Below are positions 41,275 to 62,106 of a DNA stretch of 64,000 nucleotides, one piece after another. The DNA is from an uncultured Acidobacteriota bacterium. GTDB lineage: Bacteria > Acidobacteriota > Terriglobia > Terriglobales > Acidobacteriaceae. The notes beneath the pieces were generated by a model. The model ran no database searches, was not told the origin of the DNA, and saw nothing but the letters and a program-made list of their open reading frames with translations. How positions within the stretch are numbered: position 1 is the first letter of the stretch; each line of letters begins with the position of its first letter. The DNA is taken from NCBI GenBank assembly GCA_963839975.1, contig CAWIXA010000002.1, positions 565,949 through 629,948 on the forward strand. The letters run 5' to 3'. The translations under genes and the position numbers were made by a program.

Positions 41275-43036
41275 ATGCTTCTCATCATCGAATGCGGCCT
41301 AGTCGTACTCGCGCTGATAGCGGCGTTTGCCTGTCCGCGATGGGGAGCGGGATGGTTCGAATCGTCTGGAGCGCAATTTCGCTCGACTCTCACGAAGGCG
41401 AACGCTTTCGGTCGTGATTGTCGGCGCGACGGCACTTGGCCTGCGACTCTTGCTTGTTGCCCATCTTACCGATCCCGGATCCAGCGATTCACGATGAGTT
41501 CAGTTATCTGCTCGCCGCTGACACATTCGCGCATGGACGTTTGACCAATCCCACGCACCCGATGTGGATACATTTTGAAACCTTCCACGAGATCCAACAG
41601 CCTACATATGCGTCTATGTACTATCCGGCGCAGGGACTGTTTCTTGCTTTTGGCCAAGTCGTGTTCGGGCATCCTTTTTGGGGAGTGTGGCTGAGCACCG
41701 GACTGATGTGCGCCGCGATCTGCTGGATGCTGCAAGGCTGGCTGGCTCCGCCTTGGGCACTGCTCGGGCGGAATGCTGGCAGTGATCCGGCTCGGCACAT
41801 TCAGTTATTGGATGAATAGTTATTGGGGAGGATCGGTCGCTGCGCTGGGCGGAGCGCTGGTGCTCGGGGCTCTGCCCCAGGATCAAACGTCATCGACGCG
41901 TGCGCGATGCGTTGTTGATGGGCGTCGGCTTCGCGATTGTGGCCAACAGCCGTCCTTATGAAGGACTTTTTCTTCGCGGTTCCGGTCATTGCCGCGCTTC
42001 TTTGGTCGATGCGAAAGCCGAAACGCAGAACGGTCAGCGGATTTCTCTGACGCGGATCATTCTTCCTTTGAGTGCGGTGCTCTTAATGACCGCGGCTTGG
42101 CCATGGGCTACTACTTCTGGCGAGTGACGGGTAACCCATTTCGCACGCCGTTCCAGGTCAACGTCGCGACTTACAGTCCGGTACCGTACTTTCCCTGGCA
42201 GTCGATGAAAGCCGATCCCTGAGTATCACCATTGCGGTGATGCGGGTCTTCTACCTGGGCTGGTGGATGCGGCAGTATGAATTTGGACGGACGCATCCGT
42301 TGCTCTTGTTTCTGCTCAAGAATTGCATTTTCTGGCTTTTCTTTCTGGGACCGTTACTCAGCCTGCCGGTGTTCGCCGTGTGCTTCGTACTACCCTACGG
42401 CATTTCGTTTCGGCAGTTCGGCAGCCGCACTCAGCTGCTCATGTTGGTCTGCGGTTCGGTGCTGTTTGGCGCCTTGCTGCCGGTTTATTTTAACCCTCAC
42501 TACGTTGCTCCTATTACCTGCGCGATCTACGCGCTGATATTGATTGCCCTGAGGAACGTGCGACGATGGAAGCCACGAGGCAAGCCCGCTGGGGTAGCAA
42601 TCGTTCGGTCGGTGCCGCTGATCGCCGTGTTGATGCTGGTTCTGTGCGCGGCCGGTGATTCGAGACAGCAAGGTTCCGCAGTTGGCGACCTGGTACTCAC
42701 CGATCGTTGTGAATTCCTATCGCGCCGGAATCATTGCTCAACTTTCGCAACAACCCGGACAGCACCTGGTGATTGTGCGTTATCGTCCAGACCACGTGCC
42801 CGGTCACGGAATGGGTGTTCAACTCCGCGGATATTGATCGCGCGAAGATTGTCTGGGCACGCGACATGGGCCCAGATCAAAACTCGGAATTGATCCGCTA
42901 CTTTAATCAACGCAAGGTCTGGACAGTAGAGCCCGATTACCTGCCGCCGAAGCTTAGTGAGTACAATCCAGGAGGCGTTTGGGACGAGAAAGAAAGCGGC
43001 GATCACCCGCTAGCCTTCGGAAACGGATCTCGTTAG
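41275..43036 (+). pseudogene. P-family membrane protein, copy P1, with at least 8 frameshifts
   Basis: Pieces in ORFs 41275.., 41418.., 41773.., 41900.., 41989.., 42237.., 42655.. and 42773.. reconstruct a full-length homologue of 60409..62106. Examples are [87 protein letters not shown] and EWVFNSADIDRAKIVWARDMG. Confidence 0.8.
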
Positions 43037-44304
43037 GAGTTCTTTGGATCGTGCGAGTGAAATCGGACCGCGCAGAATCAGCGCCCGTCGAGAGCACACG
43101 CTTGCGCAGCCTTGAGGTCATCCTCGGATTACTGCCGTTGATTCTGGGCTTGCAACTCCTGATTTGGATTGTGTATCTCCCAGCTGCCTTGCGAGGCAAT
43201 GCCGATTTTCGAGCGTACTACTCGGCTGGATACTTAGTGCGATCAGGGCACGCAAATCAACTCTATGATTTCGAGTTGCAGAGGACGGTTCAGAACAATG
43301 TAATTTCGCACTCGACGACTCTGCTTCCATTTATCCACCCACCTCATGAATCCCTGCTTTTCGTTCCGTTTGCATTTTTCCAATATCGCACCGCTTACTG
43401 GTGGTTCTTGGGACTAAATTTGATTTGTATTCTTGTTTGTTACGAATTGCTGCGGCGAAGACTTTGGCGCCTTCACTCCCTGTGGCGGTGGTTACCACTG
43501 CTGCTAATTGTCGGCTTTGCGCCCGTCGCCGCTGCGCTCATGCAAGGCCAGGACTCGCTCATCGTTTTCCTGTTGCTCGCGGCCGCGCTGGCGAATCTGG
43601 AGCGAGGCTGGGACCTAATCGCGGGCATCTTGCTCGGTTTAGGTATTTTCAGGTTCCAGATCGTGCTCCCAATCGCGTTCTTTTTTGTTGTCTGGCGGAG
43701 ATGGCGGTTCCTGGGTGGGTTCTGCATCTCGGCCATCCCTGCATTGGCGCTGTCTGTTTTGGTGGCGGGAACGGCCGGACTGAAGCTGTACATGAGCCTG
43801 CTATTCGATCTCAGCGTCAAACTGACTCCAGCGGGGCAGGCCCTCTATGGCGTGCCCGTTAGCCGGATGCCAAACCTCCGCGGGTTCCTGTTTTCGGTTT
43901 TGCATTTGCAGTCGAGCCACACAATGCTCGCTCTCACTCTCATCCTGTCGTTATTAGTTGTGGTGCTCGGGGGGTGGGCGGGGCGCAACGCTCCTCCCGT
44001 TTGGCAACTCTCCATCGCGATCTCGGCGTCCGTGATTGTTGGATACCACGTTTTAACTCACGACCTCAGCATCTTGCTAATCCCGATGGCGATGCTCCTG
44101 GACCGACAGATCCCCAGAGGCCTGTGGAATATACCGATGGTGTGGCTTTCTACCCCGCTGTGCTTTTTTGCCTACGATTATGTGGTCGCGCTGCCGGTGC
44201 TGTGGTTGTTTGGAGTTCTCGTATCGCAGTGCTGGCGCACCACGACCGACAATACCAGCCCGCCGAAAAATCATTCATCTGTCCCTAAGAGCCAATATTC
44301 TTAA
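42979..44304 (+). CDS. GT87/DUF2029-like polytopic membrane glycosyltransferase (copy a)
   Basis: The ORF is 441 aa. Motifs are GNADFRAYYSAGYLVRSGHANQLYDF and FIHPPHESLLFVPF, with about 10 TM segments. It is a paralogue of 55455..56705 and 62096..63370. The true start may be GTG 43051, just after AGGAG at 43035. Confidence 0.7.
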   Translation: MGRERKRRSPASLRKRISLGVLWIVRVKSDRAESAPVESTRLRSLEVILGLLPLILGLQLLIWIVYLPAALRGNADFRAYYSAGYLVRSGHANQLYDFELQRTVQNNVISHSTTLLPFIHPPHESLLFVPFAFFQYRTAYWWFLGLNLICILVCYELLRRRLWRLHSLWRWLPLLLIVGFAPVAAALMQGQDSLIVFLLLAAALANLERGWDLIAGILLGLGIFRFQIVLPIAFFFVVWRRWRFLGGFCISAIPALALSVLVAGTAGLKLYMSLLFDLSVKLTPAGQALYGVPVSRMPNLRGFLFSVLHLQSSHTMLALTLILSLLVVVLGGWAGRNAPPVWQLSIAISASVIVGYHVLTHDLSILLIPMAMLLDRQIPRGLWNIPMVWLSTPLCFFAYDYVVALPVLWLFGVLVSQCWRTTTDNTSPPKNHSSVPKSQYS

Positions 44305-44528
44305 AAGAGACCTTGTTAACGTCGTTCATCCTGGAGTGGAGGCTGAATCGAGGTGCGCTGTCTCCACTCATTCACGAGGAACGCCCTAACTGAATGCTGC
44401 TGATTGAGTTATGCCTGACGGTGTTGACTTTACCAATGGCATTTCTCGCTTCTCGCCTCGGGGAGTAATGGTTCACACCCATTGAGCGTTGCGTCTCGCG
44501 TTTCGCCGCGCGCCGCAGGCTGGCGGTT

Positions 44529-46112
44529 TTGACTGTTTTTCTTCTCGCCCTAGCTGCGCGCGTCGCAGTGCTGCCTATCGAGCCCATCCCGCAGCCAGCC
44601 GTCCACGATGAGTTCAGCTATCTGCTTATGGCTGACACTTTCGCACACGGACGTGTCACCAATCCCGCTCATCCGATGTGGGTTCACTTTGAAACATTCC
44701 ACGTCAATCAGCTGCCGACCTACAGTTCCATGTACTACCCCGCTCAGGGTTTGTTTCTAGCGCTTGGCCAAGTGGTCCTCGGACATCCGTTCTGGGGAGT
44801 GTGGTTGAGTGTGGGTTTGATGTGTGCAATTTTCTGCTGGGCGCTCCAGGGGTGGATGCCGCCGGGCTGGGCTTTCCTCGGAGGCATTCTCGCGATCATC
44901 CGCCTCGGCACGTTCAGTTATTGGGCGAATAGCTACTGGGGAGGCGCAGTCGCCGCCATCGGAGGAGCACTGGTGCTGGGAGCTTTTCCGAGAATTAAAC
45001 GCCATCGGCGAATTCGCGATGCTTTGATCCTGGGCCTGGGCCTGGCGATTCTTGGAAATAGCCGTCCGTATGAGAGCGTGTTCTATTCGGCACCGATACT
45101 GATTGCCCTCGGGTTGTTCATCTTTCGATCGAACGATCGCGCAGCGTATGCGCGGCGCGCCTTGCTGCCGCTCGGGATCGTCCTGGTGATCGCTCTTTCA
45201 GCAATGGGTTACTACTTCTGGCGATGCACCGGGTCTCCGTTTCGGACCCCATACATGCTGAATATGCGAAGCTACCAAGCTGCCCCGCATTTCCCATGGC
45301 AAGCAATCAAATCCGAGGTTGCCTATCACCATCCAATGATGGAAAAATTCTACCGGGGCTGGGCAATCCAGCAATACCAAGATGTACGTAACGCTCCGGT
45401 GGTCAGCCTGTTCGCTCGAGGACTAAAGGGCGCATCGTTTTTCAGCGGCCCAATTCTTCTGCTTCCATGGCTTGTCCTTGTCGCAATTCTCCCTTACGGG
45501 ATGTCTTTTCGTCAGTTGGGACCCAAGACAGGTCTTTTGGTGAAAATCTGTCTTAGCGCAATCATGGGACTGGCACTGCCGGTTTGGGCAGCACCGCACT
45601 ACGCGGCTCCTCTTTGCTGTGCATTTTACGCACTCGAACTTCAAGCGATTCGGCGGGTTCGCTACTGGGACTTAAATGGCAAGCGAAAGGGACGATTCAT
45701 CACCCGCTACCTGGTTGTCGCTTGTTTTTTCTTGCTGGCGCTCAGAGCGTTTGCGGGAGTTGTGCGCATTCCATTCAATAGCGAACTCGCTCCCGTTTGG
45801 TACGCGGGACGCGATGAAAACGCCAACCGGGCAGAAATATCGAGCTGGCTTGACAGGCAACCCGGCTTACATCTGGTGATAGTGCGATACGACACCAACC
45901 ACAATTCCCTTGAGGAATGGGTTTACAACGGCGCCGATATCGACGCCTCCAAAGTCGTCTGGGCGAGAGACATGGGCGAGGCCAGGAACCAGGAACTCAT
46001 CCGCTATTTCAAAAGTCGCAAGGTCTGGCTATTGGAACCAGATCTCATGCCGCCGAAACTCTCGGTCTATCCAGTGACCCAAGCCGCGAGTGAACGGACA
46101 CCGATGAGATAG
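44529..46112 (+). CDS. P-family membrane protein, copy P2 (N-terminal 45 codons cut off by an in-frame TAA)
   Basis: The track ORF starts at TTG 44529. The same frame upstream from ATG 44394 encodes MLLIELCLTVLTLPMAFLASRLGE-TAA-WFTPIERCVSRFAARRRLAV. This aligns with the N-termini of the other copies. Family motifs are [25 protein letters not shown] and HLVIVRYDTNHNSLEEWVYNGADIDASKVVWARDMG. Confidence 0.8.
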   Translation: MTVFLLALAARVAVLPIEPIPQPAVHDEFSYLLMADTFAHGRVTNPAHPMWVHFETFHVNQLPTYSSMYYPAQGLFLALGQVVLGHPFWGVWLSVGLMCAIFCWALQGWMPPGWAFLGGILAIIRLGTFSYWANSYWGGAVAAIGGALVLGAFPRIKRHRRIRDALILGLGLAILGNSRPYESVFYSAPILIALGLFIFRSNDRAAYARRALLPLGIVLVIALSAMGYYFWRCTGSPFRTPYMLNMRSYQAAPHFPWQAIKSEVAYHHPMMEKFYRGWAIQQYQDVRNAPVVSLFARGLKGASFFSGPILLLPWLVLVAILPYGMSFRQLGPKTGLLVKICLSAIMGLALPVWAAPHYAAPLCCAFYALELQAIRRVRYWDLNGKRKGRFITRYLVVACFFLLALRAFAGVVRIPFNSELAPVWYAGRDENANRAEISSWLDRQPGLHLVIVRYDTNHNSLEEWVYNGADIDASKVVWARDMGEARNQELIRYFKSRKVWLLEPDLMPPKLSVYPVTQAASERTPMR

Positions 46113-46196: not shown

Positions 46197-46844
46197 CTAG
46201 CGGGCGGGGTTGCCGCTTTCGCAGAGAGCGATAAAGTGAAGGCCGCGGTCAAAAAACCATGACAACGGGATCGGATAGAGATTCAATTTGAACTTGATCG
46301 CGGTAGCGTGCAGCCCGAACTCTTCGAAGGCAGCGATCCATTTGGACTTAGGCCAATAGTTGTAGGGCAGGGCCACACCGTGGCGGGCATTCCCAACCCA
46401 GTCCATTAAGCGCAGGGTCTCATCCGCAAAGAGTCCGTCGCAGAAGTGGTCCTTGATTATCACTGTTTTACCGACTCGGGCAGCTTCGCGAAGCAAGTTG
46501 CGGGGATCCGCGGTGTGGTGAAGCACATCCACGAACATGACCGCGTCAAAGGTGCGGTCCGGGTATGGAATATTTTCTCCGTCGAAGGAGCGAACTGGAA
46601 TGTGAACCCTGGGCCGAACAAGAGGATCGATGCCTTCGATTTCGATGTCCGGCTTCCGCTCCTTGATGAGGCAATCAATTGTTCCGTCGCCGCAACCAAC
46701 GTCAAGAACTCGAGAGCCGGGTGAAATCAGGCTGGCGAGATGGTCGGCCAATACGCGGGTCCTACGGCTGAAGATAAACTTTTCGTGGACCGTTCCTATG
46801 AGACTCCCTTGGCGTTGTTGGTCAGTCATATTTCTCGTAATCAC
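46197..46844 (-). CDS. Class I SAM-dependent methyltransferase
   Basis: The ORF is 215 aa. Motif I is RVLDVGCGDGT and post-I/II is FDAVMFVDVLHH. It overlaps the 3' end of the upstream GT2 gene, so the two are in the same operon. Confidence 0.85.
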   Translation of the reverse strand: MITRNMTDQQRQGSLIGTVHEKFIFSRRTRVLADHLASLISPGSRVLDVGCGDGTIDCLIKERKPDIEIEGIDPLVRPRVHIPVRSFDGENIPYPDRTFDAVMFVDVLHHTADPRNLLREAARVGKTVIIKDHFCDGLFADETLRLMDWVGNARHGVALPYNYWPKSKWIAAFEEFGLHATAIKFKLNLYPIPLSWFFDRGLHFIALCESGNPAR

Positions 46845-48066
46845 CGATGTAAGTCCCGCGGCTGATTCCTAACATGCTAAGGAAGAACGAAGAAAAGACT
46901 ACTTGCAGGCCAAGCAGGAACAACAGCGAAAAGAAGATGACGGCGCGCAACTGGGCGAAGGGACCGAAGCCGCTGGCTATCCATTGCCAGACGATCCAGG
47001 CGATTCCTGCGCTGCCGGCCAACGTGAGAATCCCGCCGAGGACGAGGCCTTGTTCCAGCTTGATTCGTTTCAGCCAGCGCTCCAGAGAACGCTGTCCGGG
47101 AGCGAAGCGTTCGGCGTAGCTGAAAACCTTGGCGAATAAGCCGAGAGCGAGAATCTGGGTCCCGGCCAGAGTGAAGACCATGCCGAAGAGCATGGTGTGG
47201 ACATCGATGACCGTCTTGCCCAACTGCTGCGGACCGGGCAGCAGCCAGACCACGAGGGCGAGGCCGAACAGCGCGATGGCCGCGCCGGGAGCCAGGAACA
47301 GCCAGTTGGGCGCGAACATCAACATGAAGCGCAAGTGGCGCCAGCCATCGCGAAAGCTGCGCAGATGGGGCGGACGTCCGCGCTTATCGGGCCACAGGGT
47401 GACGGGAATTTCGACGATCCTGGTGCCCATTTTTGCGGCTTTGATTACGAACTCAGAGGCGAATTCCATGCCGGTAGTGCGAAGGCCGAGTCGATTATAG
47501 AGATCACGAGTGAAGCCGCGCATCCCGCAATTGACGTCGCGAATTCCGGCACGAAAAAAAAGATTCAAGATGCTCGACATGACTGGCGTGCCGAGATAAC
47601 GGTGATGCCAGGGCATGGCGCCGGGCTTGATGCCTCCTATGAAGCGGTTGCCCATGACGAAGTCGGCGCCTTCGCGCCATTTGGTAACAAACTCGGGGAC
47701 TTGCGCGAAGTCGTAGCTGTCGTCACCGTCTCCCATGACGATGAAATCGCCTTGCGCGGCTTCGATTCCGGCGCGGAGCGCGCTTCCGTATCCGCGCGTG
47801 GCGACGCGGACTACGCGTGCGCCATGCTGCTCGGCGATCTCAATCGATCCATCGGTAGAACCGTTGTCTGCGACAACTACTTCGCCACGAACGTTGGCCT
47901 TGGCGAAGGATGCCAGAGCTTTGTTGACGCAGATGGCGATAGAGTTGGCCTCGTTCAGGCAAGGGATTACCACCGAGACTTCAGCATTTGCAGGAGACAC
48001 GAGTTCTTTTCCGGTGTGGCCGTCTGAGGAGTCGCCGTGACCCGCGGGATCGAAAGTCGAATCCAT
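46822..48066 (-). CDS. GT2 glycosyltransferase with a C-terminal 4-TM domain (GtrB/ArnC/DPM1-like polyprenyl-phosphate glycosyltransferase), copy a
   Basis: Motifs are VSVVIPCLNEANSI, VVVADNGSTDGS, IVMGDGDDSYDF and MRGFTR. Four hydrophobic helices follow. It is a close paralogue of 58862..60079. Confidence 0.9.
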   Translation of the reverse strand: MDSTFDPAGHGDSSDGHTGKELVSPANAEVSVVIPCLNEANSIAICVNKALASFAKANVRGEVVVADNGSTDGSIEIAEQHGARVVRVATRGYGSALRAGIEAAQGDFIVMGDGDDSYDFAQVPEFVTKWREGADFVMGNRFIGGIKPGAMPWHHRYLGTPVMSSILNLFFRAGIRDVNCGMRGFTRDLYNRLGLRTTGMEFASEFVIKAAKMGTRIVEIPVTLWPDKRGRPPHLRSFRDGWRHLRFMLMFAPNWLFLAPGAAIALFGLALVVWLLPGPQQLGKTVIDVHTMLFGMVFTLAGTQILALGLFAKVFSYAERFAPGQRSLERWLKRIKLEQGLVLGGILTLAGSAGIAWIVWQWIASGFGPFAQLRAVIFFSLLFLLGLQVVFSSFFLSMLGISRGTYIGDYEKYD

Positions 48067-48157: not shown

Positions 48158-49477
48158 TTACGGTGCAAACAAATTCAGCTGATGCGCCTGTAAGAAATCA
48201 AGTTTCGGTTGGATTGTGGCGGGATAGGAGTAGGGCGCGGCTCCTGTCTTCTGATTGCAATCCAAAAGGTCGCGCTCCGCCAGGTAGCAAGTCTTCCAAT
48301 CGCTCTTGAGTCGCTGGATGGCAGACATTCCCACGCGATCGGCATCATGAACAACTAAGGAACTGCACAGAGCAACGGCAATCAGTACCGCACCCACCAA
48401 AGGGCGAGCCAGGGGATCGCGAATGGAAACATTGTCGCTCAGCAGAAGATACATCCCAAGAAATGCAGGCGCTAAGTAAATCGCGTACCGCGATCCGACG
48501 GCTGCGCCTAATCCCAAACACATGCGGCCATGGCCGGCCCCAAAGGCAAAGAGGAGTGAATAGGAAATCAGGAATAACGGAATAGTCGCTCGCTTTTGAA
48601 AGGCAAAGATCAGCATGCCCACGACGAAAATCAGAAGCAAACTGCCACCCAGGACCGAGGGCACAAGTATCACTGGCGCTTTAAGGCCTAGAAAATTAGC
48701 GAGCATGAAAGCCGTGAACAAGAAGTAATTCAGCGGTGGATACAAACCATGGGGCGCACACACGCCGTCCGCAGTCTGATAGCCAGTGAAGAAAAATGCC
48801 AGCGACAAGACAGCGAGACCCAACGCGACGGCGCGAATCAGCTTTTCTGATTCCGGAATCTCATGCCGACGCGTCCACCAGTCAAAAACGATCATCAATG
48901 GACACAGGAAGCCAATAAACATGCCGAAACCGGTGTGGGTGGCGACAAATGTGAGAGGAATCAGAATTGAATATCTCAGCCAAACGGCCTTTATTGTCCA
49001 CGTCAGACAGAAGAGGATGATGAACAACAGCGGCAAAGGGCCGTGAGATAAACTCGTCACGCCGATCTCGGTCTCATACTGAACGGGAGTCAACAGGAAA
49101 AGCGGGATCAGCGAATCCCAGACCGTGAGTTTGCCGCTGACTCGAACCTTGAGGACCAATGCCAAAAAACACGCTGCGATGACAAATCCGCCGGCGACGA
49201 AAGATTCAACGCGGCTGTTCCAGTGGGTCGCCGAGCCGATCCAGGCTGACAATAGCCCGCCCAAGCCTTGCCGCCACGGGTGCGACTGCCAACGAAAAAT
49301 AGTCCAGGCTGATTGAGGGTGAAATAAGAGAGGTTCGTCGTAAAGCCACTGATCGCCGAAGAATACGTTGACAGAATAGGTGCGAATGATGCCAAACAGG
49401 CGTCCTGCGCACAACATCATGACCAGCGCAGGATTAGCCGCATGAGCGAATTTACCCCAACGCGCTCTGTCCATCAT
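48158..49477 (-). CDS. Uncharacterised polytopic membrane protein (possible GT-C or polymerase-like)
   Basis: The ORF is 439 aa and hydrophobic almost throughout, with at least 10 TM segments. A short C-terminal soluble tail is present. It is the first gene of the minus-strand operon with GT2a and the methyltransferase. I recognise no family. Confidence 0.55.
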   Translation of the reverse strand: MMDRARWGKFAHAANPALVMMLCAGRLFGIIRTYSVNVFFGDQWLYDEPLLFHPQSAWTIFRWQSHPWRQGLGGLLSAWIGSATHWNSRVESFVAGGFVIAACFLALVLKVRVSGKLTVWDSLIPLFLLTPVQYETEIGVTSLSHGPLPLLFIILFCLTWTIKAVWLRYSILIPLTFVATHTGFGMFIGFLCPLMIVFDWWTRRHEIPESEKLIRAVALGLAVLSLAFFFTGYQTADGVCAPHGLYPPLNYFLFTAFMLANFLGLKAPVILVPSVLGGSLLLIFVVGMLIFAFQKRATIPLFLISYSLLFAFGAGHGRMCLGLGAAVGSRYAIYLAPAFLGMYLLLSDNVSIRDPLARPLVGAVLIAVALCSSLVVHDADRVGMSAIQRLKSDWKTCYLAERDLLDCNQKTGAAPYSYPATIQPKLDFLQAHQLNLFAP

Positions 49478-51411: not shown

Positions 51412-51452
51412 GAGAAGTGATGCCATGCCCACCCTGCGAGGTCATCTAGCGT

Positions 51453-53165
51453 ATGTTGTGGATCGAAACCGGCCTCGTGTTGTTGTCGTTGCTGATTGCT
51501 TTCATCCACCCTTCACTCGGTTCATGCTGGTTCGGAAAACTGGAGCAAGGCTTCATTCGACTCGCCCGCCGCCGGACTCTTTCAGTTGTAGTCGTCGGAC
51601 TATCTGCTCTTGGACTTCGAGGTGCGCTTCTACCAATTTTGCCGATTCCGGAGCCGATCATTCACGACGAGTTTGGCTATCTCCTCGCTGCAGACACGTT
51701 CGCGCATGGCCGGCTCGCCAATCCCACGCCCCCGATGTGGATACATTTTGAAACCTTTCACGTCATGTTCCATCCGACTTACGCTTCGATCTACCCTCCG
51801 GCCCAGGGACTGGTCTTAGCAGCTGGCAAATTGATTGCAGGAAATCCCTTTGTGGGGGTATGGCTCAGCGTCGGGGTTATGTGCGCCGCCATCACCTGGA
51901 TGCTTCAAGGGTGGTTGTCGCCGCCTTGGGCGTTGTTGGGGGGGATGCTGGCCATCATGCGCTTCGGCGTGTTCGGGTACTGGGCAAACAGCTATTGGGG
52001 AGGAGCGGTGGCGGCGATAGGAGGATGCCTGGTCCTTGGGTCATTACCGCGAATCAAGGCTTCGCAACGAGTCCGTGATGCGTTGCTGATGGGGTTGGGA
52101 TTGGCCGTTCTTGCGAACAGCCGCCCTTACGAAGGATTTGTTTTCAGCTTGCCGATTGCGATTGTGCTGGCTGTGTGGATGCGCGGGAGCAACCGACCGG
52201 GGACCGGAGTCCTGATACGCCGTGTGGTTTTGCCTTTGGCGCTGATGCTGGCGGTGACCGCTGCCGGCATGGGCTACTATTTTTGGCGAGTCACCGGTAG
52301 TCCGTTCCGAATGCCCTATCAGGTTGAGCGGCAAACCTACGCCGTTGCTCCGTACATGATCTGGCAACACGCTCGGCCTGAGCCGGTATACAACCACGCA
52401 GTCATGAGAAAGATGTTCGTTGATGAGGAACTGTATGGCCGCAGCGTTTTTCGGTCCCCAGCCGGATTGCTGGCCCGGATCTATCTGGCTTGGAGTTTCT
52501 ATTGCGGGCCTGTATTAGCGCTCCCTCTCCTTATGCTTGCGGTCACCTTGCCTCGAGATTTTTCTTTGGGCGGGGAGGATCGCTCCAAGCTCACATTGTT
52601 GGCGGTGCTCGGCGTGTCAGCCGCCGGATCGCTGTTGGTGAATTTCTACAGCGCACACTATTCCGCTCCTGCAACCGGAGCTTTCTTGGCCGTGGTACTG
52701 CTGGCGATGCGGCAGATGCGTCGCTGGAATGCAGCGGGGCTGTTCCTCGCGCGTTGCATTCCTGTGATCTGTGTGCTGATGTTCGGGCTGCGTGCTGCTG
52801 CCACGCCGCTGCACATTCCGCAAAGCGAATTCTTCGAGTGCGCTTGGTACCAAAAGAGTCCGCCGGAAGTTGGCAGGGCCGCGGTGCAACAGGAACTGGA
52901 AATGCTGCCGGGCGGCCAGCTTGTGATTGTCCGTTACAGTCCGGACCACAAGCCCTTTCGGGAGTGGGTGTACAACGACGCCGACATTGATCACGCGAAA
53001 GTGATTTGGGCACGCGAAATGGATCCAGCCGCGAAGAACTGGGACTTAGTTGACTACTTCAAAGATCGACAAGCCTGGTTACTGGAGGCCGATGACGTTC
53101 CGCCACGACTCACAAGGTATCCGTCACCTGGATCATCTGTAGGAATGAAACCAACTGCGCAGTAA
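51453..53165 (+). CDS. P-family membrane protein, copy P4
   Basis: The ORF is 570 aa. Motifs are [53 protein letters not shown] and [35 protein letters not shown]. Confidence 0.8.
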
Positions 53166-55385
53166 GTAGTACTCGTTGATAGGTTGATCATCCCGTATTG
53201 GGGGAACACGCGAATCGATGTCGATTATTTCCTTCATGGTTAGTTCGCGCGAGAGGAGCCGTTCGAATTGTCTCGAAGGGTCTGCCTCCGGCCCCCATTC
53301 CACAAAATCATGCACTGCTGCGATGGGTAGGCGTGCTCCCAAGACTGAACTGGAGGGAGCGGGCAATGGCTCCATACTTGCCAGGAAGTGAATCCCGAGA
53401 TTATCGAAGGACGCGAAGGCGTGCACGTAGGGAAAGGACTGCTTGATGGCTTTGGCGACCGAAGCAGCAGTGGCTGCATCACCAAGTGAGGCGGGGTACC
53501 ACATTTGCAAGATCCCATCATTTGCCAAATGCTTTTTGATCACCGCATAAAACTCGGTTGAGTACAACAGACTGGAACCTGGTGCTGCGGTCGGCGGAGG
53601 TGGATCCACCACGATGACGTCGTAGGTTTGAGTTGAGCCATCGAGAAAGCGCCGGCCGTCATCGATAACAACTCGCGCCAATGAAGAGCTCACGACTCTT
53701 GAGGCATCGGGATGAAAGTACCCAAACAGCGCTGGGACACTGGGGACCAAATCCACCGCCGTGGTAGGAATCCCCCACGAGAGCATTGAGCGGAAGCTGG
53801 TTCCCATTCCAAAACAAATGACCAGTCCGTTGCGCGGCGGCCTCGACATGAAAGCGAGCGGAAGGTGAGCCATATATTTGGTAACCGGAGTCAACGTTGT
53901 CATCCCAACTCCATTCACCAAAAGCTGCCTATCGAATCCCTTCCCCGTCGCAACCACAGTCGCGGTGTAATCACGGCGAACCTCGCGTTCGGCGTATTTC
54001 TTTTCGTAGTCGTGGCTCATCCGAAAGAGCACGATCGCTACGATGGCCGCCAAGGCAAACTTCACCCTCGGGTTGAGACCGGGCTTGGCCTGAACCATAT
54101 CGGAAGACGGCTTTCGAAGTGCTGTGAGCGCGGCAATCGCGAACAGCGGAACGGCGAGAAGCATCGCGGCGCGGCGTTCTCCCAGCCATGGCAAGAGCCA
54201 GAAGCCCGCCAATAATGGTCCGAGAATCGATCCCGCCACATTGACCGCATAGGCAGTTCCGGCGCGGTCGGGATCTCCTGACGACCAGGAATCCACAAGC
54301 AACGGAGTAAGGAAGCCGGCTAAGGCACAGAACAGGACGATGGCGGACAGGCGCAGGCCACCAAACTCGACGTCGCCAAGCCGCAGCGGCAGCAGCGGAT
54401 CAGCAGCCACTACCGGGATCACGGCGAATAACGCCAGTAAACTCCATGCCGAAGCGCTTTCTCCCGGTTGGTGAGAGTGGGCCCATGAGCGGTAGTCGTG
54501 CGATCCCACAACAGTGGCGAGCAGGTACACGACCAGGATGCCTGCAAACGCATACACAACATTGCCCAGGTAGGGAGTAAACTGACGAATCCAGACAACT
54601 TCCATCCCCATGCTCACGAGGCCGGTTGTGAACAACATAATGAGAACTGATCCCCTCGGAAGTCCGTAAAGCCTGAATCGTAGAGCTTGTATGGGAGTCG
54701 CTGAGCCACTAGAAGGCGATAAGACTGTGCGGAAGCTCATCCTGAAGGCAACCAGCGCAAGCGTTGCATTGAGAGTGCCGGCTACGTACAGAGTGCCGTG
54801 GAAGCCCAGCAGTTCGATTAAGACAAAGGCCGAGGCAAGCGTGCCGAGAAGTGCACCGAATACGTTCGCCATATACAAATAGCTGAAGGAGCGTTCCGAA
54901 GCAGGGCGAGCATTCTGACGAATGACCGCCATCAGCAGAGGAAATGTTGACCCCATACACGTGCACCAAGGGACGAGCGTGATCGCGATCCACAGACCAA
55001 CGATGAAGTAGTAGCGCGAGCTTTGCCACGCCCCGAAGCTTCCCATGTGTTGCAACAGAACGCGCCCAATCTTCAATTCGAGGGGTACAACTAGTGACGA
55101 GATTCCAACTAGCAACTCGGCGATTGAATAGAGGCGTAACGCTCGCGATCCATGAGCCTGCAAAACTCTTCGGGTCCAGACACCCGCGCCCCATGACCCT
55201 AGACCCAAGCCAGCCATGAACATCGAAATCACGATGGAAGCTAGTGCCGTGGTCACACCGAAGCTGGCCATGGCGAGTCGCAGCCAAACCACTTCGTAGA
55301 CCAGGCCGCAGAACCCGGAGACCACAAAAAAGCTAAAGTACCAACGCAGATTGAACGCTGGGATCTCTCGCGCGGAGCTGTTCAA
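53133..55385 (-). CDS. Fused polytopic-membrane / spermidine-synthase-like protein (paralogue of 28197..30407)
   Basis: The ORF is 750 aa. Motifs are [53 protein letters not shown] and [10 protein letters not shown]. It lies 69 nt downstream of the GT87b gene on the same strand. Confidence 0.85.
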
Positions 55386-55454: not shown

Positions 55455-56705
55455 TCACCGACTTGGAAGACTCAAAGGAGACAACGGAGAGACGCTCTCG
55501 TCCACTGAAATGACTCCTTTGCGCAACGCATAGGCAAAGAACAACCCCAGAATTGGGATTGCGCCAATGAAGCCGTAGAAGGGGTCGATCGCAATCGCGG
55601 GAACAATGAGAGCAGCGGTGGCTGCCAAGGCTACTGGAACGGAGTTGCTACAGAGACACATTCCTATCGGGATAAGCAGGATGGTGGCATCCGGAGCATT
55701 GAGATGATAGCTCACTAACGCAGCGGCAACGATGGACAGAGGCAGAGACGGCCGGCATCGGGCAACGATCAGCAATACTACGAAAGAGCTCGCCAGAATC
55801 AGTCCTTGCACCCACCAGTGAGGGACGCGGCCGCCTAACAGCGCAGAAAGCAGTCCTCGGAGATTGAGCATGGTCTTGGGAGAAAGGGAGTAGCGCATGG
55901 CGTCAGCCTCGGATCGAAGGTTCACGCTCATTCCCAGCAACATGGACGCATACTGCCTGGCTCCCTGCATACCAACTAGGAGCAGGGAGATGAATGCGGC
56001 GGTCGCCGAGGAGATTGCGAATCCAAGCACAAAACGCCACCGCTTCCACAGCAGGAACACAACAGCAATCGGTATCACGATCTGAAATTTGAAAACTCCG
56101 AGTCCGACCATCAAACCTGCCGGCAAATCTCTTCCCGTGCGAAGCCAAGCCAGCGCGCCTGCCAGAAGGGCGAGAAGCAGAATGGAGTCAGCTCCGCGAG
56201 TGAGCGAGTAGGTGACTGGGAAAAACGCGGGAAACAGAAGAGCTGGGAACAAAACCCATCTCTCGGACAGAACTCTCAGGCTGGGTTGCAGAAGCCTCAC
56301 ACACCAAGCGATGACGCCCAGATTCAAGACCAGGAACAGAGCAAGCGCTCTCGAATAGGGCAGCAGTGATAGCGGCGCGAAAAGCAGCGCCTCATAAGCT
56401 GGATGGTCCATCGGTTGATTCAACGTCAGCCCCAGCGGAACCAACTGGTCCGACAAATTTGCCAGCTTCTCGGGGTCGTGGATATCGCGGGCATCATGCG
56501 TGCGCAGCATGTACCCGGAGGTGTAGAGCGTGCGAAAAACGGCGACACCGCGCAGGCCAAGTGGCAGGTACGCGATCCAGATCAACATCTCGAAACCAAT
56601 CAACAGCGGGAGCAGGCCGAGGACCAGTTCACGCGGCCAGAAAGGCTTCTTGCGCGGTACCGGGGGATGCCGTTGTACAAAACCTGAAGCGTTGAATGGA
56701 ATCAT
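55455..56705 (-). CDS. GT87/DUF2029-like polytopic membrane glycosyltransferase (copy b)
   Basis: The ORF is 416 aa. LGLLPLLIGFEMLIWIAYLP and HPAYEALLFAPL align with copy a. GLGVFKFQIVIPIAVVFLLWKRWRF parallels GLGIFRFQIVLPIAFFFVVWRRWRF in copy a. Confidence 0.7.
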   Translation of the reverse strand: MIPFNASGFVQRHPPVPRKKPFWPRELVLGLLPLLIGFEMLIWIAYLPLGLRGVAVFRTLYTSGYMLRTHDARDIHDPEKLANLSDQLVPLGLTLNQPMDHPAYEALLFAPLSLLPYSRALALFLVLNLGVIAWCVRLLQPSLRVLSERWVLFPALLFPAFFPVTYSLTRGADSILLLALLAGALAWLRTGRDLPAGLMVGLGVFKFQIVIPIAVVFLLWKRWRFVLGFAISSATAAFISLLLVGMQGARQYASMLLGMSVNLRSEADAMRYSLSPKTMLNLRGLLSALLGGRVPHWWVQGLILASSFVVLLIVARCRPSLPLSIVAAALVSYHLNAPDATILLIPIGMCLCSNSVPVALAATAALIVPAIAIDPFYGFIGAIPILGLFFAYALRKGVISVDESVSPLSPLSLPSR

Positions 56706-56929: not shown

Positions 56930-58720
56930 GTGAGCACAGTCTCCGAAAGTCAATGGCGGATCCAGACATTCGCACCCTCAACCGCGAACTACAGGCTATT
57001 GCGGATCTCTTGTTGGGTTGTGGCCCTGGGTCTCGGCGCAGCCCAGTCCTGGGCGAAGCGTTTCGAAATGGATCCCGACGGCGTATCCTACCTCGACATC
57101 GGGGACGCCTACTGGCGCGGCGATTGGCACAATGCCGTCAATGCATACTGGAGCCCGCTGTACTCGTGGGTTCTTGGTTTTTTCCTCAAGCTGTGCAGAC
57201 CGTCGGCTTATTGGGAATACCCAACCGTCCGTCTGGCCAACTTTCTGATCTACCTGGCCGCGCTCGTGTGCTTCGAGTTTTTTCTGACGACATTCATAAC
57301 ACAGCGCAGACAACGCAGCTTGCAGCTGTTGAATGACGGACAGATGGGGTTGCCGGAATCCGCATGGTGGCTTCTCGGTTACAGTTTGTTTCTTTGTTCA
57401 TCTCTTCTCCTGATCGGCGCGGACCTCGTGACACCCGACATGTGCGTCGCCGCTTTTGTATATTTGGCATCGGCGCTGGTCTTGAAAATTCGAGCCGGCA
57501 GCACTGGCCACCGTACCTTTGTTGCTCTCGGCCTCGTGCTCGGGTTTGCCTATCTGGCTAAAGCTGTCATGTTTCCCTTGGGATTGGTATTTCTTGGCAC
57601 CGCAATATTTGCCAGTAGGCCGTGGCCGAACTGGTTGAGAAATGCGGCGATCGCGACTCTAGCATTTGTGGCGGTCGCGGGCCCGTTTATTGCAGCGATT
57701 TCGTATGCTAAGGGACGAACCACTTTCGGCGACAGCGGACGACTTAACTTCACATGGTGCATTAACGGAGTAGACCCGTGGTATCCGGGTGATGGAGGCC
57801 GAATAATTTGTATTGGCACAGGACGGGTGCAAGACATTGATGGACAATCGGTAGCACTGGCGGGCTCGTTGCGCCATCCGGTAAAGAAGATATTTGATAC
57901 TCCCGCAGCATACTGGTTTGACGAGCCGATCACCGGGACCTATCCGTTTTGGTATGACCCCTCCTACTGGCAGGATGGCGTCAAGGGGCATTTTGATGGG
58001 AGCACGCAACTGTGGACAATAGGCAGAAGCTTCCTGATTTACCTGGACTTGCTCAAGACCGTTTATCTCAATGTCCTCGCGCCGTTCTTAATTCTGTTGC
58101 TTATTTCGTCGGCTCCAATCCGATTCTGGGCGCGTGCGGTTGAGCGTTGGGAGGTTATTGTCCCTTCCGCAACTGCATTCATCTTGTATTCCCTGGTTCA
58201 TACGGAGCCTCGGTATGTTGCAGGCTTCATCGCCATTGTTGGGTTGATCGCGTTTCATGGGTTGCGGTTCCGCGAGTCTCCGGAGTTGCGACGATTTCTG
58301 ACTCTGACATTGTTAGCCGTCGCTGTGACTACGCTTGGATTCACCGGCAGAATAGTCGTTTCCGACGCCATAGCCGCCAGGGGGCTTGCTCCGGTTTACT
58401 GGCTGGTCGCGAAATCTCTGAATGATCACGGTGTGCAGCCGGGAGCAAGAATCGCAACGGTTACACCCGAACCGTTCGGTGCAGGCGGAGCGTTTGTTGG
58501 CAGGCTTGCCAGGCTGCAGATAATCGCGCAGGTGAACCAGCCGGATCGTTTTTGGGCTTCGCCGGCGTCGACCCAATCTGCGGTTCTAGAAGCTTTTCGG
58601 CGAGCGGGATGCGATGGGGTGTTGGGCTGGAAAGTTCCACGTTCTGCATCGGGGTGGCAGAGGCTGGGCCCAACGGAATACTGGTTCTTGAAGCTGGACG
58701 ACCGACCTAAATTGCCGTGA
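56930..58720 (+). CDS. ArnT/PMT-like (GT-C) polytopic membrane glycosyltransferase
   Basis: The ORF is 596 aa. After TM1 comes the acidic loop FEMDPDGVSYLDIGDAYWRGDW, comparable to the first-loop DE...GDW pattern of ArnT-type enzymes. About 11 TM segments and a C-terminal soluble domain follow. Confidence 0.55.
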   Translation: MSTVSESQWRIQTFAPSTANYRLLRISCWVVALGLGAAQSWAKRFEMDPDGVSYLDIGDAYWRGDWHNAVNAYWSPLYSWVLGFFLKLCRPSAYWEYPTVRLANFLIYLAALVCFEFFLTTFITQRRQRSLQLLNDGQMGLPESAWWLLGYSLFLCSSLLLIGADLVTPDMCVAAFVYLASALVLKIRAGSTGHRTFVALGLVLGFAYLAKAVMFPLGLVFLGTAIFASRPWPNWLRNAAIATLAFVAVAGPFIAAISYAKGRTTFGDSGRLNFTWCINGVDPWYPGDGGRIICIGTGRVQDIDGQSVALAGSLRHPVKKIFDTPAAYWFDEPITGTYPFWYDPSYWQDGVKGHFDGSTQLWTIGRSFLIYLDLLKTVYLNVLAPFLILLLISSAPIRFWARAVERWEVIVPSATAFILYSLVHTEPRYVAGFIAIVGLIAFHGLRFRESPELRRFLTLTLLAVAVTTLGFTGRIVVSDAIAARGLAPVYWLVAKSLNDHGVQPGARIATVTPEPFGAGGAFVGRLARLQIIAQVNQPDRFWASPASTQSAVLEAFRRAGCDGVLGWKVPRSASGWQRLGPTEYWFLKLDDRPKLP

Positions 58721-58861: not shown

Positions 58862-60079
58862 TTATTGTTCGCCAATATAGGTATCCCGGCTGATCCCCAA
58901 CATACTCAAGAACACGGAGGAAAACAAAATCTCGACTCCGAGGAACAAGGAAAGCGAACAGAAGAACACCGTGCGCACAGCCGCGAGACGCCCGAATCCG
59001 CGAGAGGCCCATTGCCAGAAGACGAATGCGTCCCCGGTAAACCCGACCAGCAGAAAGGCCGCGCCCAGCAGGAGTCCGTGCTCCAGCCTTAAACGCTTCA
59101 GCCAGCGCACGAGCGTCTGTTGATTGCGCGCCAATCTTTCCGTGTAGCAAAACACCTTGACGAAAAGACCGATGGAGAAAATATGCATACCCAGCAGGAT
59201 GAGCATCATCGCCAACGACAGAGTATTCACATCCAGTCCCACTCTTCCTGCCAGAACAGGGCCGGGCAGAAGCCAGAGGACAATCCCCAAGCCCAGGGCC
59301 ATGAGGACGCCTCCGGGTAAGAGAAAAAGCCAGTCGGGCGCGGAGAGCATGATGAATCGCAAGTGCCGCCAGCCGTCGCGAAACGTGTTCAGATGCGGTG
59401 GGCGGTCACGCTGCTCCGGCCATGTGGTGATGGGAATCTCCGTGATCTGAGCGCCAGCCTTGGCTGCCTTGATAAGCGATTCCGAGCAAAGCTCGAAACC
59501 ATTCGTGCGCAGATCGAGCTGTTGGGCCAGATCCTTCGACATGCCACGCATGCCGCTGTTCATGTCAGTGACCCGTGCGCCGAAGAAAACATTGATCAGG
59601 GCAGAAAGAACCGGGGTGCCGAGATGCCGATGATGCCATCGCATCGCCCCACGTTTGATTTCGCCCAGGATCCGGCTCCCCAAAACGTAATCGTGGCCCT
59701 GACGCCATTTCGCAACGAAGTTGGGCACCTCGGAGAAATCATGGCTGCCGTCAGCGTCACCGAGAATGATGAAGTCGCCACGGGCTGCCACTATGCCGGC
59801 GCGAACCGCGCTTCCGTATCCCTTGATTTTGGCATGAACGACTCGCGCCCCGTGCGCTTCGGCGATTTCGATCGAACCGTCGGTTGAGCCGTTGTCGGAG
59901 ACGATAACCTCGCCTTCGATTGCATGGGCACGGAATGCGGCAAGAGCTTTGTCAATGCAGGACGCGATGGACCGCACCTCGTTCAGGCACGGGATCACCA
60001 CCGAGACTTCCGGGCGAACGCTGGGGCGCCCACCGGTGGCAGACTGTTCCGAGACGACGGTCTTTAGCGTGGTATCCAT
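58862..60079 (-). CDS. GT2 glycosyltransferase with a C-terminal 4-TM domain (GtrB/ArnC/DPM1-like), copy b
   Basis: Motifs are VSVVIPCLNEVRSI, VIVSDNGSTDGS, IILGDADGSHDF and MRGMSK. It shares the C-terminal TM architecture of copy a. Confidence 0.9.
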   Translation of the reverse strand: MDTTLKTVVSEQSATGGRPSVRPEVSVVIPCLNEVRSIASCIDKALAAFRAHAIEGEVIVSDNGSTDGSIEIAEAHGARVVHAKIKGYGSAVRAGIVAARGDFIILGDADGSHDFSEVPNFVAKWRQGHDYVLGSRILGEIKRGAMRWHHRHLGTPVLSALINVFFGARVTDMNSGMRGMSKDLAQQLDLRTNGFELCSESLIKAAKAGAQITEIPITTWPEQRDRPPHLNTFRDGWRHLRFIMLSAPDWLFLLPGGVLMALGLGIVLWLLPGPVLAGRVGLDVNTLSLAMMLILLGMHIFSIGLFVKVFCYTERLARNQQTLVRWLKRLRLEHGLLLGAAFLLVGFTGDAFVFWQWASRGFGRLAAVRTVFFCSLSLFLGVEILFSSVFLSMLGISRDTYIGEQ

Positions 60080-60157
60080 TAAAACCGAAACAACTATGTC
60101 GGTCCCGCCTAATCAGTTGCAGCCGCCCTGCCACTCGTCAGAATTTGCTGCGGGCGG

Positions 60158-60408: not shown

Positions 60409-62106
60409 ATGTTCCTGGCTCTTGAGCTCTGCTTGACAGCGATTTGCGCGGCACCGGCATTCATTCACCCTGAGCTTGGGGAAGGATGGTTTTCAGCGCT
60501 CGAACGGGGGTTTGCGACATTTGCGCGAAGACGCAGTCTAGCCGTGGTCTCGGTTGGACTGTTGGCCCTGACGCTGCGGCTGGCGTTGCTGCCGATTTTG
60601 CCCGTGCCGCAGCCGGAGGTTCACGACGAGTACAGTTATCTTCTTCTCGCTGACACGCTGGCGCACGGGCGCGTTGCCAATCCTACCCACCCGATGTGGC
60701 AGCACTTTGAGACCTTCCACGAGAACATGCGTCCGACATATGCCTCGATGTATTACCCGGGCCACGGGATCTTTCTGGCATTCGGACAGGTGGTTATGGG
60801 GCATCCATTCTGGGGCGTTTGGCTGAGCTCGGGTCTGATGTGTGCCGCGATTTGCTGGGCGTTGCAAGGCTGGATGCCACCGGGATGGGCCCTCCTTGGA
60901 GGTTGGCTGGCGGTCATTCGCCTGGGGACTTTCAGTTATTGGGCTGACAGCTATTGGGGAGGAACGGTCGCGGCGCTAGGCGGCGCGTTGGTACTCGGAG
61001 CACTACCCAGAATCAAGGGGAGCCAACGAGTGCAGGATGCAGTGATCATGGCAGTGGGAATGGCCATGCTGGCCGTCACCCGGCCTTACGAAGGCCTATT
61101 CTTTTGTATTCCCATCCTGGTTGCGCTCCTTTGGTGGATCATTAATGAACGTGCGCTATCACTGAAGACTTCGTTCGCACGGATCGTGCTACCGATTGTT
61201 CTAGTGATGGCAGCAACGTTCGCTGGTCTTGGTTATTATTTCTGGCGGGTAACCGGAAGCCCGTTCACTACGCCGTATCAAGTGAACATGCGCACTTACG
61301 GGCTGGTGTATTTTCCTTGGCAGAAGATCGGGGAGGTGCCTAAGTTTCATCACGCCGCCATGGAGATGCTGTACCGTGGCGGAGCAGTAGTTGGGATGTA
61401 TCACTTTGCGCGCCTGCACCCGATTCGGCTCCAGATCTCGAAACAGCTCGTCATCTGGCTGTTCTATTTTGGTCCGGTGTTAACACTACCTTGGCTAGCG
61501 TGGCTGTTTACCAGGCCTCGCGGAGAGTTCTGGAAATCGTTCAGTCCTGAGCTTCGCTTTCTGCTGCTGCTCGCGCTGGTGACATCGGTTTCGTTCGCGC
61601 TGACCATCTATGTCGGACAGCCACACTATGCGGCGCCGCTGACCGCGGTTTTCTACGCCGGAACATTACTGGTGATGCGCGATCTGTTCAGCTGGCAATC
61701 GCAAGGCCGAACTTCCGGCAAATTCTTGGTGCGGTCGGTTCCAGCTATTTGCGCGGTCCTCCTGTTGGTGAGGTTGGCTGCGCCAGCCCTGCACATTACG
61801 CCCGCGCCGAGTTGGATTCGCACCTGGTGCTCACAAGACGCGCAAAACCTGGAGCGGGCGCGCCTTCTGAAGCAACTGGAAAACACGCCTGGAGAGCAGC
61901 TTGTGATCGTGCGCTACGGCCCCACGCATGATTTCATACTCAACGAATGGGTGTTCAACAACGCAGACATAGATGGCTCCAAGGTAATTTGGGCGCGTGA
62001 CATGGGGCCTGACAACGCTGAGTTGCTTCAGTATTTCAAAACCAGGAATGTGTGGTTGGTTGAGCCGGACTACAATCCTCCCAGGTTATCGCCCTATGCC
62101 CAATAG
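60409..62106 (+). CDS. P-family membrane protein, copy P5 (intact reference copy)
   Basis: The ORF is 565 aa. Motifs are ILPVPQPEVHDEYSYLLLADTLAHGRVANPTHPMW (HDE at 60622..60630), [29 protein letters not shown] and QLVIVRYGPTHDFILNEWVFNNADIDGSKVIWARDMG. Confidence 0.85.
   Translation: MFLALELCLTAICAAPAFIHPELGEGWFSALERGFATFARRRSLAVVSVGLLALTLRLALLPILPVPQPEVHDEYSYLLLADTLAHGRVANPTHPMWQHFETFHENMRPTYASMYYPGHGIFLAFGQVVMGHPFWGVWLSSGLMCAAICWALQGWMPPGWALLGGWLAVIRLGTFSYWADSYWGGTVAALGGALVLGALPRIKGSQRVQDAVIMAVGMAMLAVTRPYEGLFFCIPILVALLWWIINERALSLKTSFARIVLPIVLVMAATFAGLGYYFWRVTGSPFTTPYQVNMRTYGLVYFPWQKIGEVPKFHHAAMEMLYRGGAVVGMYHFARLHPIRLQISKQLVIWLFYFGPVLTLPWLAWLFTRPRGEFWKSFSPELRFLLLLALVTSVSFALTIYVGQPHYAAPLTAVFYAGTLLVMRDLFSWQSQGRTSGKFLVRSVPAICAVLLLVRLAAPALHITPAPSWIRTWCSQDAQNLERARLLKQLENTPGEQLVIVRYGPTHDFILNEWVFNNADIDGSKVIWARDMGPDNAELLQYFKTRNVWLVEPDYNPPRLSPYAQ

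Follow-up and report, generated by a model that had tools for sequence, protein, structure and literature searches.

Glycosyltransferases of the C fold (GT-C enzymes) are very diverse in sequence, and new families of them continue to be added. They carry a conserved Asp/Glu motif in the first extracytoplasmic loop, such as the DE of ArnT and PMT. The subject of this report is a group of five related membrane proteins, P1 to P5, encoded in a 64,000-nucleotide (nt) window of an uncultured Acidobacteriota bacterium (assembly GCA_963839975.1, contig CAWIXA010000002.1, positions 565,949 to 629,948 of the forward strand). The window is the whole stretch of DNA that was analysed, and the island with P1–P5 spans approximately 41–63 kb of it. 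The five proteins quite likely represent an uncatalogued GT-C family whose members draw on polyprenyl-phosphate sugars in the periplasm. This reading draws on their paralogy, predicted fold, residue conservation, topology pattern and gene linkage.

ArnT (GT83; structures 5f15 and 5ezm), the lipid A 4-amino-4-deoxy-L-arabinose transferase, resembles the family in its architecture, a multi-span GT-C core that leads into a small alpha/beta domain, C-terminal and periplasmic. In both, a 'DE-x-x-Y' stands right after the first core transmembrane (TM) helix, as PDETRYAE in Escherichia coli ArnT and HDEFSYLL in the family. On visual comparison, 'PDETRYAEISREMLASGDW' of E. coli ArnT stands at the equivalent place; this is a resemblance only, hhalign against a shallow ArnT alignment being silent. 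ArnT is served by a partner GT2 enzyme that makes its polyprenyl-phosphate sugar, as is proposed here for the GT2 enzymes encoded beside the family. Unlike ArnT, the family has an extra, optional N-terminal helix and another C-terminal domain without a fold match, occurs in multiple copies and is linked to GT87 genes rather than to an arn operon.

The same logic is found in the Gtr systems (GtrA/GtrB/Gtr*; GT136, pentofuranose), where an external GT-C enzyme receives its lipid-phosphate sugar from a GT2- or UbiA-type synthase (PMC11127046). Three-component systems of this kind, in which a lipid-phosphate-sugar synthase works with a flippase and a GT-C, are established; the GT-C protein that gave rise to family GT136 resembled none of the existing glycosyltransferase families in sequence (PMC11127046). 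GtrB is a detectable relative of the GT2 enzymes of the window, and a UbiA fusion among the relatives of P1–P5 (P0138, described below) is a further parallel. The family differs in having many GT-C genes per locus rather than one, and in residing in a chromosomal island rather than a serotype-converting phage cassette.

In mycobacteria, the PimE/GT87, MptA-C and Emb/Aft set (lipomannan and lipoarabinomannan, LM/LAM, and arabinan) likewise comprises several GT-C enzymes, GT87 included, encoded with a polyprenyl-phosphate-sugar synthase. AftA, AftD and Emb proteins are structural matches of the P5 model, which fits stepwise periplasmic glycan assembly. The mycobacterial set belongs to another phylum and envelope type, the family is not GT87 (PF09594 is silent on it), and no LM/LAM-type lipoglycan was found described for Acidobacteria in the literature searched. 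Finally, the oligosaccharyltransferases (OSTs) STT3, PglB and AglB (GT66) resemble the family in two respects: their first external loop contains an acidic residue, and their C-terminal domain is periplasmic.

The mechanism class proposed for P1–P5 is already known and is no new kind of biochemistry. What is new is the size of the family, its total lack of annotation, its near-confinement to Acidobacteriota, its family-specific C-terminal domain and its setting in GT-C-rich islands.

Five paralogues in the window

All five copies were located where a first-pass annotation of the DNA sequence had placed them, P1 with the ATG (41275) and TAG (43034–43036) given for it:

41275..43036, plus strand: P1, frameshifted family copy, identified by three-frame translation, tblastn and the family hidden Markov model (HMM)
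44394..46112, plus strand: P2, family copy with an in-frame TAA, identified by HMM match
49672..51411, plus strand: P3, intact, 579 amino acids (aa), with QDE in place of HDE; alternative open reading frame (ORF) start at GTG 49621
51453..53165, plus strand: P4, intact, 570 aa, in tandem with P3
60409..62106, plus strand: P5, intact, 565 aa, the modelled copy, with approximately 12 predicted TM helices and a predicted periplasmic C-terminal domain

The intact copies are pairwise 48–52% identical over their full length (approximately 560 aa), and the sequence similarity among the five is far beyond chance. When the membrane part and the tail were each turned into an HMM, exactly P1–P5 were matched in the window and nothing else. 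The motifs listed for the group were recovered, namely ARRR, PxPxxHDE[FY]SYLL..DT.AHGR..NPT, SYWGG, SRPYE and QLVIVRY...WV.N.ADID..KV.WARDM...W.L.EPD. P4 is 65% identical to a copy in a different genome (locus L002), and the closest relative of P5, from a JGI metagenome, is 93% identical, whereas both are only approximately 50% identical to their neighbours in the window. The paralogues are therefore old. Their sequences suggest distinct specificities rather than recent amplification.

P1 had been described as decayed, and it is readable only with at least eight frame switches in a three-frame translation, its conserved residues still being legible. Pieces of P1 retrieved by tblastn with its paralogues lie in frames 1, 2 and 3, and the family HMM matches five separate P1 ORF fragments. 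Homopolymer runs (ggg, cccc and ttttt) stand at three P1 frame changes inspected by eye. Either P1 is a pseudogene or the assembly is poor at this place. In P2, codon 25 is an in-frame TAA (44466–44468); the next in-frame start is TTG 44529, and a restart there would drop the first helix and the ARRR loop. Selenocysteine was considered at this stop, which aligns with a Cys in P4, and was ruled out on two grounds: TAA is the codon present, and the RNA downstream folds no better than shuffled sequence does.

P1 and P2 are the last of four consecutive defective genes at 37889–44468. The first, an ORF named unk360 (37889–38971), is truncated relative to homologues of 510–560 aa, and the second, a DegT-type sugar aminotransferase on the minus strand (approximately 40018–41154), is broken into at least three frame fragments. 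A GT87 gene amid them (42979–44304) appears intact. The stretch reflects either real decay or local assembly error.

Distribution and absence from catalogues

A word-indexed search returned at least 7,781 clusters at 90% identity, all of them unnamed or 'hypothetical' and without a precomputed Pfam domain. Exhaustive phmmer against 1.84 billion representatives clustered at 50% identity gave 6,458 proteins at E ≤ 1e-3, of which 2,257 reached E ≤ 1e-30. More than 557 stretches encoding relatives were found in one-genome-per-species contigs, and the locus counts below refer to the best 80 of these. All 80 are from Acidobacteriota (Terriglobia, Bryobacteraceae, Solibacteraceae and Pyrinomonadaceae among the groups), except for one bin labelled Candidatus Binatia. 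Judged by these best 80 loci, the family occurs almost entirely in Acidobacteriota.

The first-pass annotation could place the proteins in no named family, and none of the sequence models of Pfam, NCBIfam and PDB covers P1–P5. Four window copies had no Pfam match at E ≤ 1 (Pfam-A 2025) and no NCBIfam match (NCBIfam 20.0). Among 71 diverse members there was no Pfam match at E ≤ 0.01, save one weak DUF6541 match in 1/71. A PDB sequence search with two family profiles yielded nothing even at E ≤ 10, and no description of the family was found in the literature searched.

Individual GT-C families gave the same result. PMT PF02366 and PMT_2 PF13231 (GT39/GT83) matched neither the four window copies nor the 71 members, while relatives of E. 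coli ArnT do bear both. When the family profile was set against E. coli ArnT in hhalign, the probability was 9%; the ArnT alignment used was shallow (relatives 77–100% identical). GT87 PF09594 is absent from the family copies, though their neighbours match it at E 1e-21 to 1e-23. In hhalign the family and a neighbouring GT87 scored 0.4% probability; this was an uninformative single-sequence comparison, as were those with the neighbours unk596 and a 559-aa homologue of unk360 in locus L001. The Pfam and PDB sequence searches just given (E ≤ 10 for PDB) likewise gave no match that would place the family in GT66.

Predicted fold

P5 was modelled by AlphaFold2 on a 40-sequence alignment, and the model was compared with PDB by Foldseek. 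The model has a mean pLDDT of 89, a pTM of 0.91, no segment below 50 and approximately 12 TM helices. The top 30 Foldseek matches are GT-C-fold proteins throughout, with probabilities of 0.95–1.0 and E-values down to 6e-6. They include STT3 in OST complexes, AglB, PglB, ALG12, ALG9, AftA, AftD, EmbA/B/C, Pmt4, ArnT, DPY19 and the glycosylphosphatidylinositol (GPI)-transamidase chain 8imx_U. The first non-GT-C folds in the list are transporters, at probabilities of at most 0.3. ArnT gives the most symmetric TM-scores (0.47/0.49). Structures of the ArnT/OST type and of the ALG9/12 type score alike, so the assignment is made at the level of the fold and not between GT-C_A and GT-C_B. At that level the GT-C assignment of the P5 model is solid. 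The proposal that P1–P5 are a candidate GT-C family is supported by GT-C enzymes being the only confident matches, and no confident match to a non-glycosyltransferase family was found.

Conserved residues and topology

Two segments of P5 hold residues that are discussed here:

60592..60759, plus strand: first periplasmic loop of P5 (residues 62–117), with D73/E74 encoded at 60625–60630
61078..61092, plus strand: (S/T)RPYE of P5 (residues 224–228), a short periplasmic turn between two TM helices

Conservation was counted in 139 representatives that are 36–63% identical to P5. The Asp and Glu of the first loop, whose invariance among homologues the first-pass annotation had proposed to check, are conserved in 98% (D73) and 99% (E74) of them, R225 in 100% and E228 in 98%. 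Conservation is at least 95% for T83, R88, N91, P109, Y111, W150, W178, Y182, G184 and Y407. H72 is conserved in merely 61%, so the motif is DE and not HDE; of the [HQ]DE motif first described, the acidic pair stands and the preceding position does not. The (S/T)RPYE turn may contribute to donor-phosphate binding or belong to the active site.

Topology was derived from the helices of the AlphaFold2 model and from family-wide charge counts, which are sequence statistics. The five predicted cytoplasmic loops have net charges of +3.7, +3.7, +2.3, +1.2 and +2.7. The net charge of the DE loop is -2.1, and the short loops with the SYWGG, SRPYE and PHY motifs are close to 0. By this positive-inside pattern the periplasm is the predicted location of the DE loop, of every invariant polar residue and of the C-terminal domain. 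The DE loop is thereby placed outside the cytoplasm, on the side that the first-pass annotation had called for in a GT-C enzyme. The ARRR loop that it described between two N-terminal TM helices is present, but the first of these helices (residues 2–19) seems to be optional among relatives, many of which align from approximately residue 28 only; one representative (P0142) has just 11 residues before that point. With the first helix left out, the topology is the canonical N-in GT-C arrangement.

These residues bear on the idea that P1–P5 have a GT-C-like fold and are not enzymes, serving instead as a scaffold or substrate-binding subunit like PIG-U, or as a transporter. Chain 8imx_U, the non-catalytic PIG-U subunit of GPI transamidase, is indeed among the structural matches. 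However, transporter folds score as low as given above, and thousands of sequences show a periplasmic cluster of near-invariant acidic and basic residues that suggests an active site. Because the charged residues are invariant, a non-catalytic role is very improbable.

The C-terminal domain

One further segment of P5 is distinctive:

61840..62103, plus strand: C-terminal domain of P5 (residues 478–565), a predicted family-specific periplasmic alpha/beta domain

The proteins had been described as ending in a hydrophilic tail of approximately 110 aa. The conserved tail is present, but it is predicted to be a folded alpha/beta domain of the last 90–100 residues or so, in which two helices accompany a sheet of four strands; modelled on its own, the domain has a pLDDT of 82. 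Tail residues N517, W528, A529, R546 and W549 are conserved in at least 95% of the representatives. Foldseek with the domain alone gave no significant match in PDB (best E 0.65), and an HMM of the domain matched only where it was attached to the membrane core of the family, both in the window and in the 80 loci. The possibility that neighbouring unclassified membrane proteins share the domain was ruled out, as this HMM matches family proteins only. No carbohydrate-binding or OST-like label could be assigned, Foldseek having no significant match. By analogy with ArnT, PglB and Emb, it is plausible that the domain binds the acceptor.

The domain contains a near-invariant 'WARDMG' (61990–62013, P5 residues 528–535, with equivalents in P1–P4) that is superficially like the acceptor-binding 'WWDYG' of OSTs. 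The likeness is probably coincidental. It is nevertheless one of two points in favour of an OST-like activity, in which a preassembled glycan would be moved from polyprenyl diphosphate to a protein or other acceptor, as by PglB, AglB and STT3; the other is that the best Foldseek E-values (6e-6 to 1e-4) belong to these enzymes. Against this, the TM-scores to OSTs are no better than those to ALG12 or ArnT, and Pfam, which presumably includes an STT3 model, is silent at E ≤ 1. The C-terminal domain is far smaller than in the OSTs (approximately 100 aa), has 'VWARDMG' and not WWDYG, and matches no fold, OST domains included. The linked genes encode GT2 enzymes like monophosphate-sugar synthases together with GT87 enzymes, which points to monophosphate donors, rather than a set for cytoplasmic oligosaccharide assembly and flipping. 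An OST-like role is very unlikely on these grounds.

Neighbouring genes in the window

P1–P5 are interleaved with three GT87 genes, two GT2 genes of approximately 410 aa, an S-adenosylmethionine (SAM) methyltransferase, two unclassified polytopic membrane proteins and a spermidine-synthase-like protein:

42979..44304, plus strand: GT87-family GT-C gene overlapping the end of P1 (Pfam PF09594, E 2e-22)
46197..46844, minus strand: class I SAM methyltransferase, convergent with P2 (Pfam Methyltransf_23/11)
46822..48066, minus strand: GT2 with four C-terminal membrane helices (PF00535; hydropathy)
48158..49477, minus strand: membrane protein of 439 aa between the GT2 and P3, approximately 10 TM helices, no family match
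53133..55385, minus strand: fused membrane/spermidine-synthase-like protein of 750 aa (resemblance to NCBIfam MFS_SpdSyn)
55455..56705, minus strand: GT87-family GT-C gene (PF09594, E 3e-21; weak match to mannosyltransferase PRK13375)
56930..58720, plus strand: polytopic membrane protein of 596 aa (unk596) with 'DPDGVSYLDIGD' directly after the first helix; no Pfam, NCBIfam or family-profile match
58862..60079, minus strand: second GT2, like dolichol-phosphate-mannose synthase (DPMS), ArnC and GtrB, divergent from P5; synteny retained at the P5 orthologue on L082
61997..63370, plus strand: GT87-family GT-C gene overlapping the end of P5 (PF09594, E 6e-23)

The last gene probably begins at ATG 62096, to judge from L082, where the overlap is 11 nt. 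For both GT2 proteins the closest solved structures are a DPMS (5mlz), ArnC and GtrB. They also match the NCBIfam AglJ, dolichyl-phosphate-hexose-transferase and PpgS models below cut-offs, and they end in four hydrophobic helices. By sequence, the two belong to the enzyme class that makes polyprenyl-phosphate sugars and are candidate donor synthases. Homologues of the 596-aa protein adjoin family members and GT2 genes in L002, L004 and L005, and this protein may be another unclassified GT-C. Homologues of the 750-aa protein lie near the family in just 3/80 loci, a weak linkage.

This neighbourhood, with ArnC among the closest relatives of its GT2 proteins and the remnant of a DegT-type sugar aminotransferase just upstream, could also be read as serving an ArnT-like modification of lipid A or lipopolysaccharide core rather than a separate glycan. 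The architecture of a multi-span core with a periplasmic domain of approximately 100 aa is indeed closest to that of ArnT, as the TM-scores given above indicate. However, there is no detectable sequence relation to ArnT, no equivalents of arnA, arnD or arnEF were seen in the window, and up to four or five diverged copies per locus with several GT87 genes exceed the needs of a single decoration. A role in lipid A or core modification is accordingly unlikely.

Gene context across relatives and fusions

The first-pass annotation had proposed that co-occurrence with GtrB-like GT2 genes be examined, and GT2 proteins like polyprenyl-phosphate-sugar synthases do recur beside family members, together with GT87. 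A GT87 or GT2 homologue lies within 10 kb in 49/80 loci. GT87 is directly downstream on the same strand in 14/80 loci, where fewer than one would be expected (a rough estimate from uniform placement), and in approximately 10 further loci it follows a second, more divergent GT87. The order P2, methyltransferase and GT2 of the window (the latter two on the opposite strand) recurs in L018, L028, L040, L052 and L055. At the P5 orthologues (93% and 75% identical) the order of GT2, family gene and downstream GT87 is kept, as is the overlap of the family gene with GT87. One island with a P5 orthologue (L083) also has PMT_2, Acyl_transf_3, two methyltransferases and two more family copies.

Fusions were found among five cluster representatives (P0138, P0202, P0220, P0253 and P0269). 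In P0138, a UbiA domain most like decaprenyl-phosphate phosphoribosyltransferase (DPPR synthase) is fused to a full family domain. The others of the set include an N-terminal TPR domain joined to the family domain, a weak PMT_2 and TPR joined to it, and a fusion of the family domain with the 'Solibacter uncharacterized C-terminal domain' (TIGR03437). The GT2 linkage and the UbiA fusion indirectly support the proposed use of lipid-phosphate-sugar donors by the family.

The TPR fusions raise the question of protein O-glycosyl (mannosyl) transfer to periplasmic or surface proteins, in the manner of PMT/TMTC or bacterial PMT_2. The combination of weak PMT_2 and TPR in one representative is TMTC-like, the island on L083 contains a PMT_2 gene, and Pmt4 is among the Foldseek matches. 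The DE-x-x-Y at the start of loop 1 also resembles the 'PDETRY' of ArnT, and PMT enzymes bear a DE at a comparable place. However, the PMT and PMT_2 models are silent on the family, and the window copies have neither a MIR nor a TPR domain. GT87 enzymes are lipoglycan mannosyltransferases, and the tight, operon-like pairing with GT87 therefore points to assembly of a glycan or glycolipid. Protein O-glycosylation is, on this evidence, rather unlikely.

Proposed mechanism and significance

The preferred reading of P1–P5, as GT-C enzymes using polyprenyl-phosphate sugars, would entail the following steps. [quoted passage not shown] The lipid-linked sugar would be flipped to the periplasm, where the family protein would hand it to an acceptor. 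Asp73-Glu74, with which the helix of the first periplasmic loop begins, may act as catalytic base or as acceptor or metal ligand, and R225/E228, R88, N91 and H406/Y407 would line a site for the donor phosphate and sugar. The family-specific C-terminal domain would cap that site. The family would work alongside GT87 enzymes on a common product, and each paralogue probably makes a different linkage as an envelope glycan or lipoglycan is assembled or decorated step by step in the periplasm. Apart from a non-catalytic role, the alternatives discussed above differ from this reading chiefly in the acceptor or the donor.

Several points weigh against this reading. It is built on sequence and predicted structure, and the TM-scores of the model to solved GT-C enzymes are modest (0.35–0.47), with large root-mean-square deviations. 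No sequence-profile link to any GT-C family was detected with Pfam, NCBIfam or PDB profiles, or by hhalign against the shallow ArnT alignment. The equivalence of D73/E74 to the catalytic Asp of GT-C enzymes is suggested by position and conservation. In 31/80 loci there is no GT2 or GT87 within 10 kb, and no flippase gene was recognised, neither GtrA nor MATE nor SMR flippases being found nearby. The fusions are single cluster representatives from metagenomes. Finally, the GT2 matches fall below NCBIfam equivalog cut-offs and so do not name the sugar.

A broader and more tentative proposal combines the family with the GT87, PMT_2-like and unclassified GT-C proteins, the two DPMS-like GT2 enzymes, the methyltransferases and, in relatives, the acyltransferase. 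The islands could conceivably be a periplasmic polyprenyl-phosphate-sugar assembly line whose product, so far undescribed, would be a lipoglycan or mannan in the envelope of Gram-negative Acidobacteriota, perhaps bearing methyl or acyl groups. It would be a functional analogue of mycobacterial LM/LAM, and the family would be a new CAZy family providing linkage-specific steps. In its entirety this proposal is doubtful.

Acidobacteriota rank with the most abundant bacteria in soil, and understanding of their glycans, both envelope and extracellular, is poor. Thousands of unannotated clusters, often with several copies per locus, imply that enzymes likely to build the envelope are filed as 'hypothetical'. 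Recognition of the family as GT-C provides a testable catalytic motif (D73/E74 and R225) and candidate partners (GT87, the DPMS-like GT2 and the methyltransferase). It could also lead to a new CAZy family and perhaps to the discovery of a new class of surface glycan in Acidobacteria.

Other features of the window

A second unannotated family of membrane proteins, with a 'DPDIWWH' motif and 510–560 aa when intact, is represented by the truncated unk360 ORF (37889–38971) and by L001:7794–9470 and L003:8426–9955. It has no Pfam match and lies upstream of the GT-C family gene in 12/80 loci. Besides the protein at 53133–55385, the window encodes a second fused membrane/spermidine-synthase-like protein (28197–30407; 736 aa; NCBIfam MFS_SpdSyn).

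An AcrB-type RND pump (558–3723) lies in two overlapping ORFs, 558–2249 and 2035–3723, which cover profile positions 1–516 and 518–1021 and so indicate a single frameshift or sequencing error. At 13580–16419, three paralogous membrane proteins of approximately 300–320 aa, encoded in tandem, weakly match GPDPase_memb and form an unrelated small cluster. Tad/Flp pilus genes stand near the GT-C island both in the window (33937–34614, TadE/G-like) and in the orthologous island of a relative (L083/L084, 16169–21698), which suggests that synteny is conserved on a larger scale.

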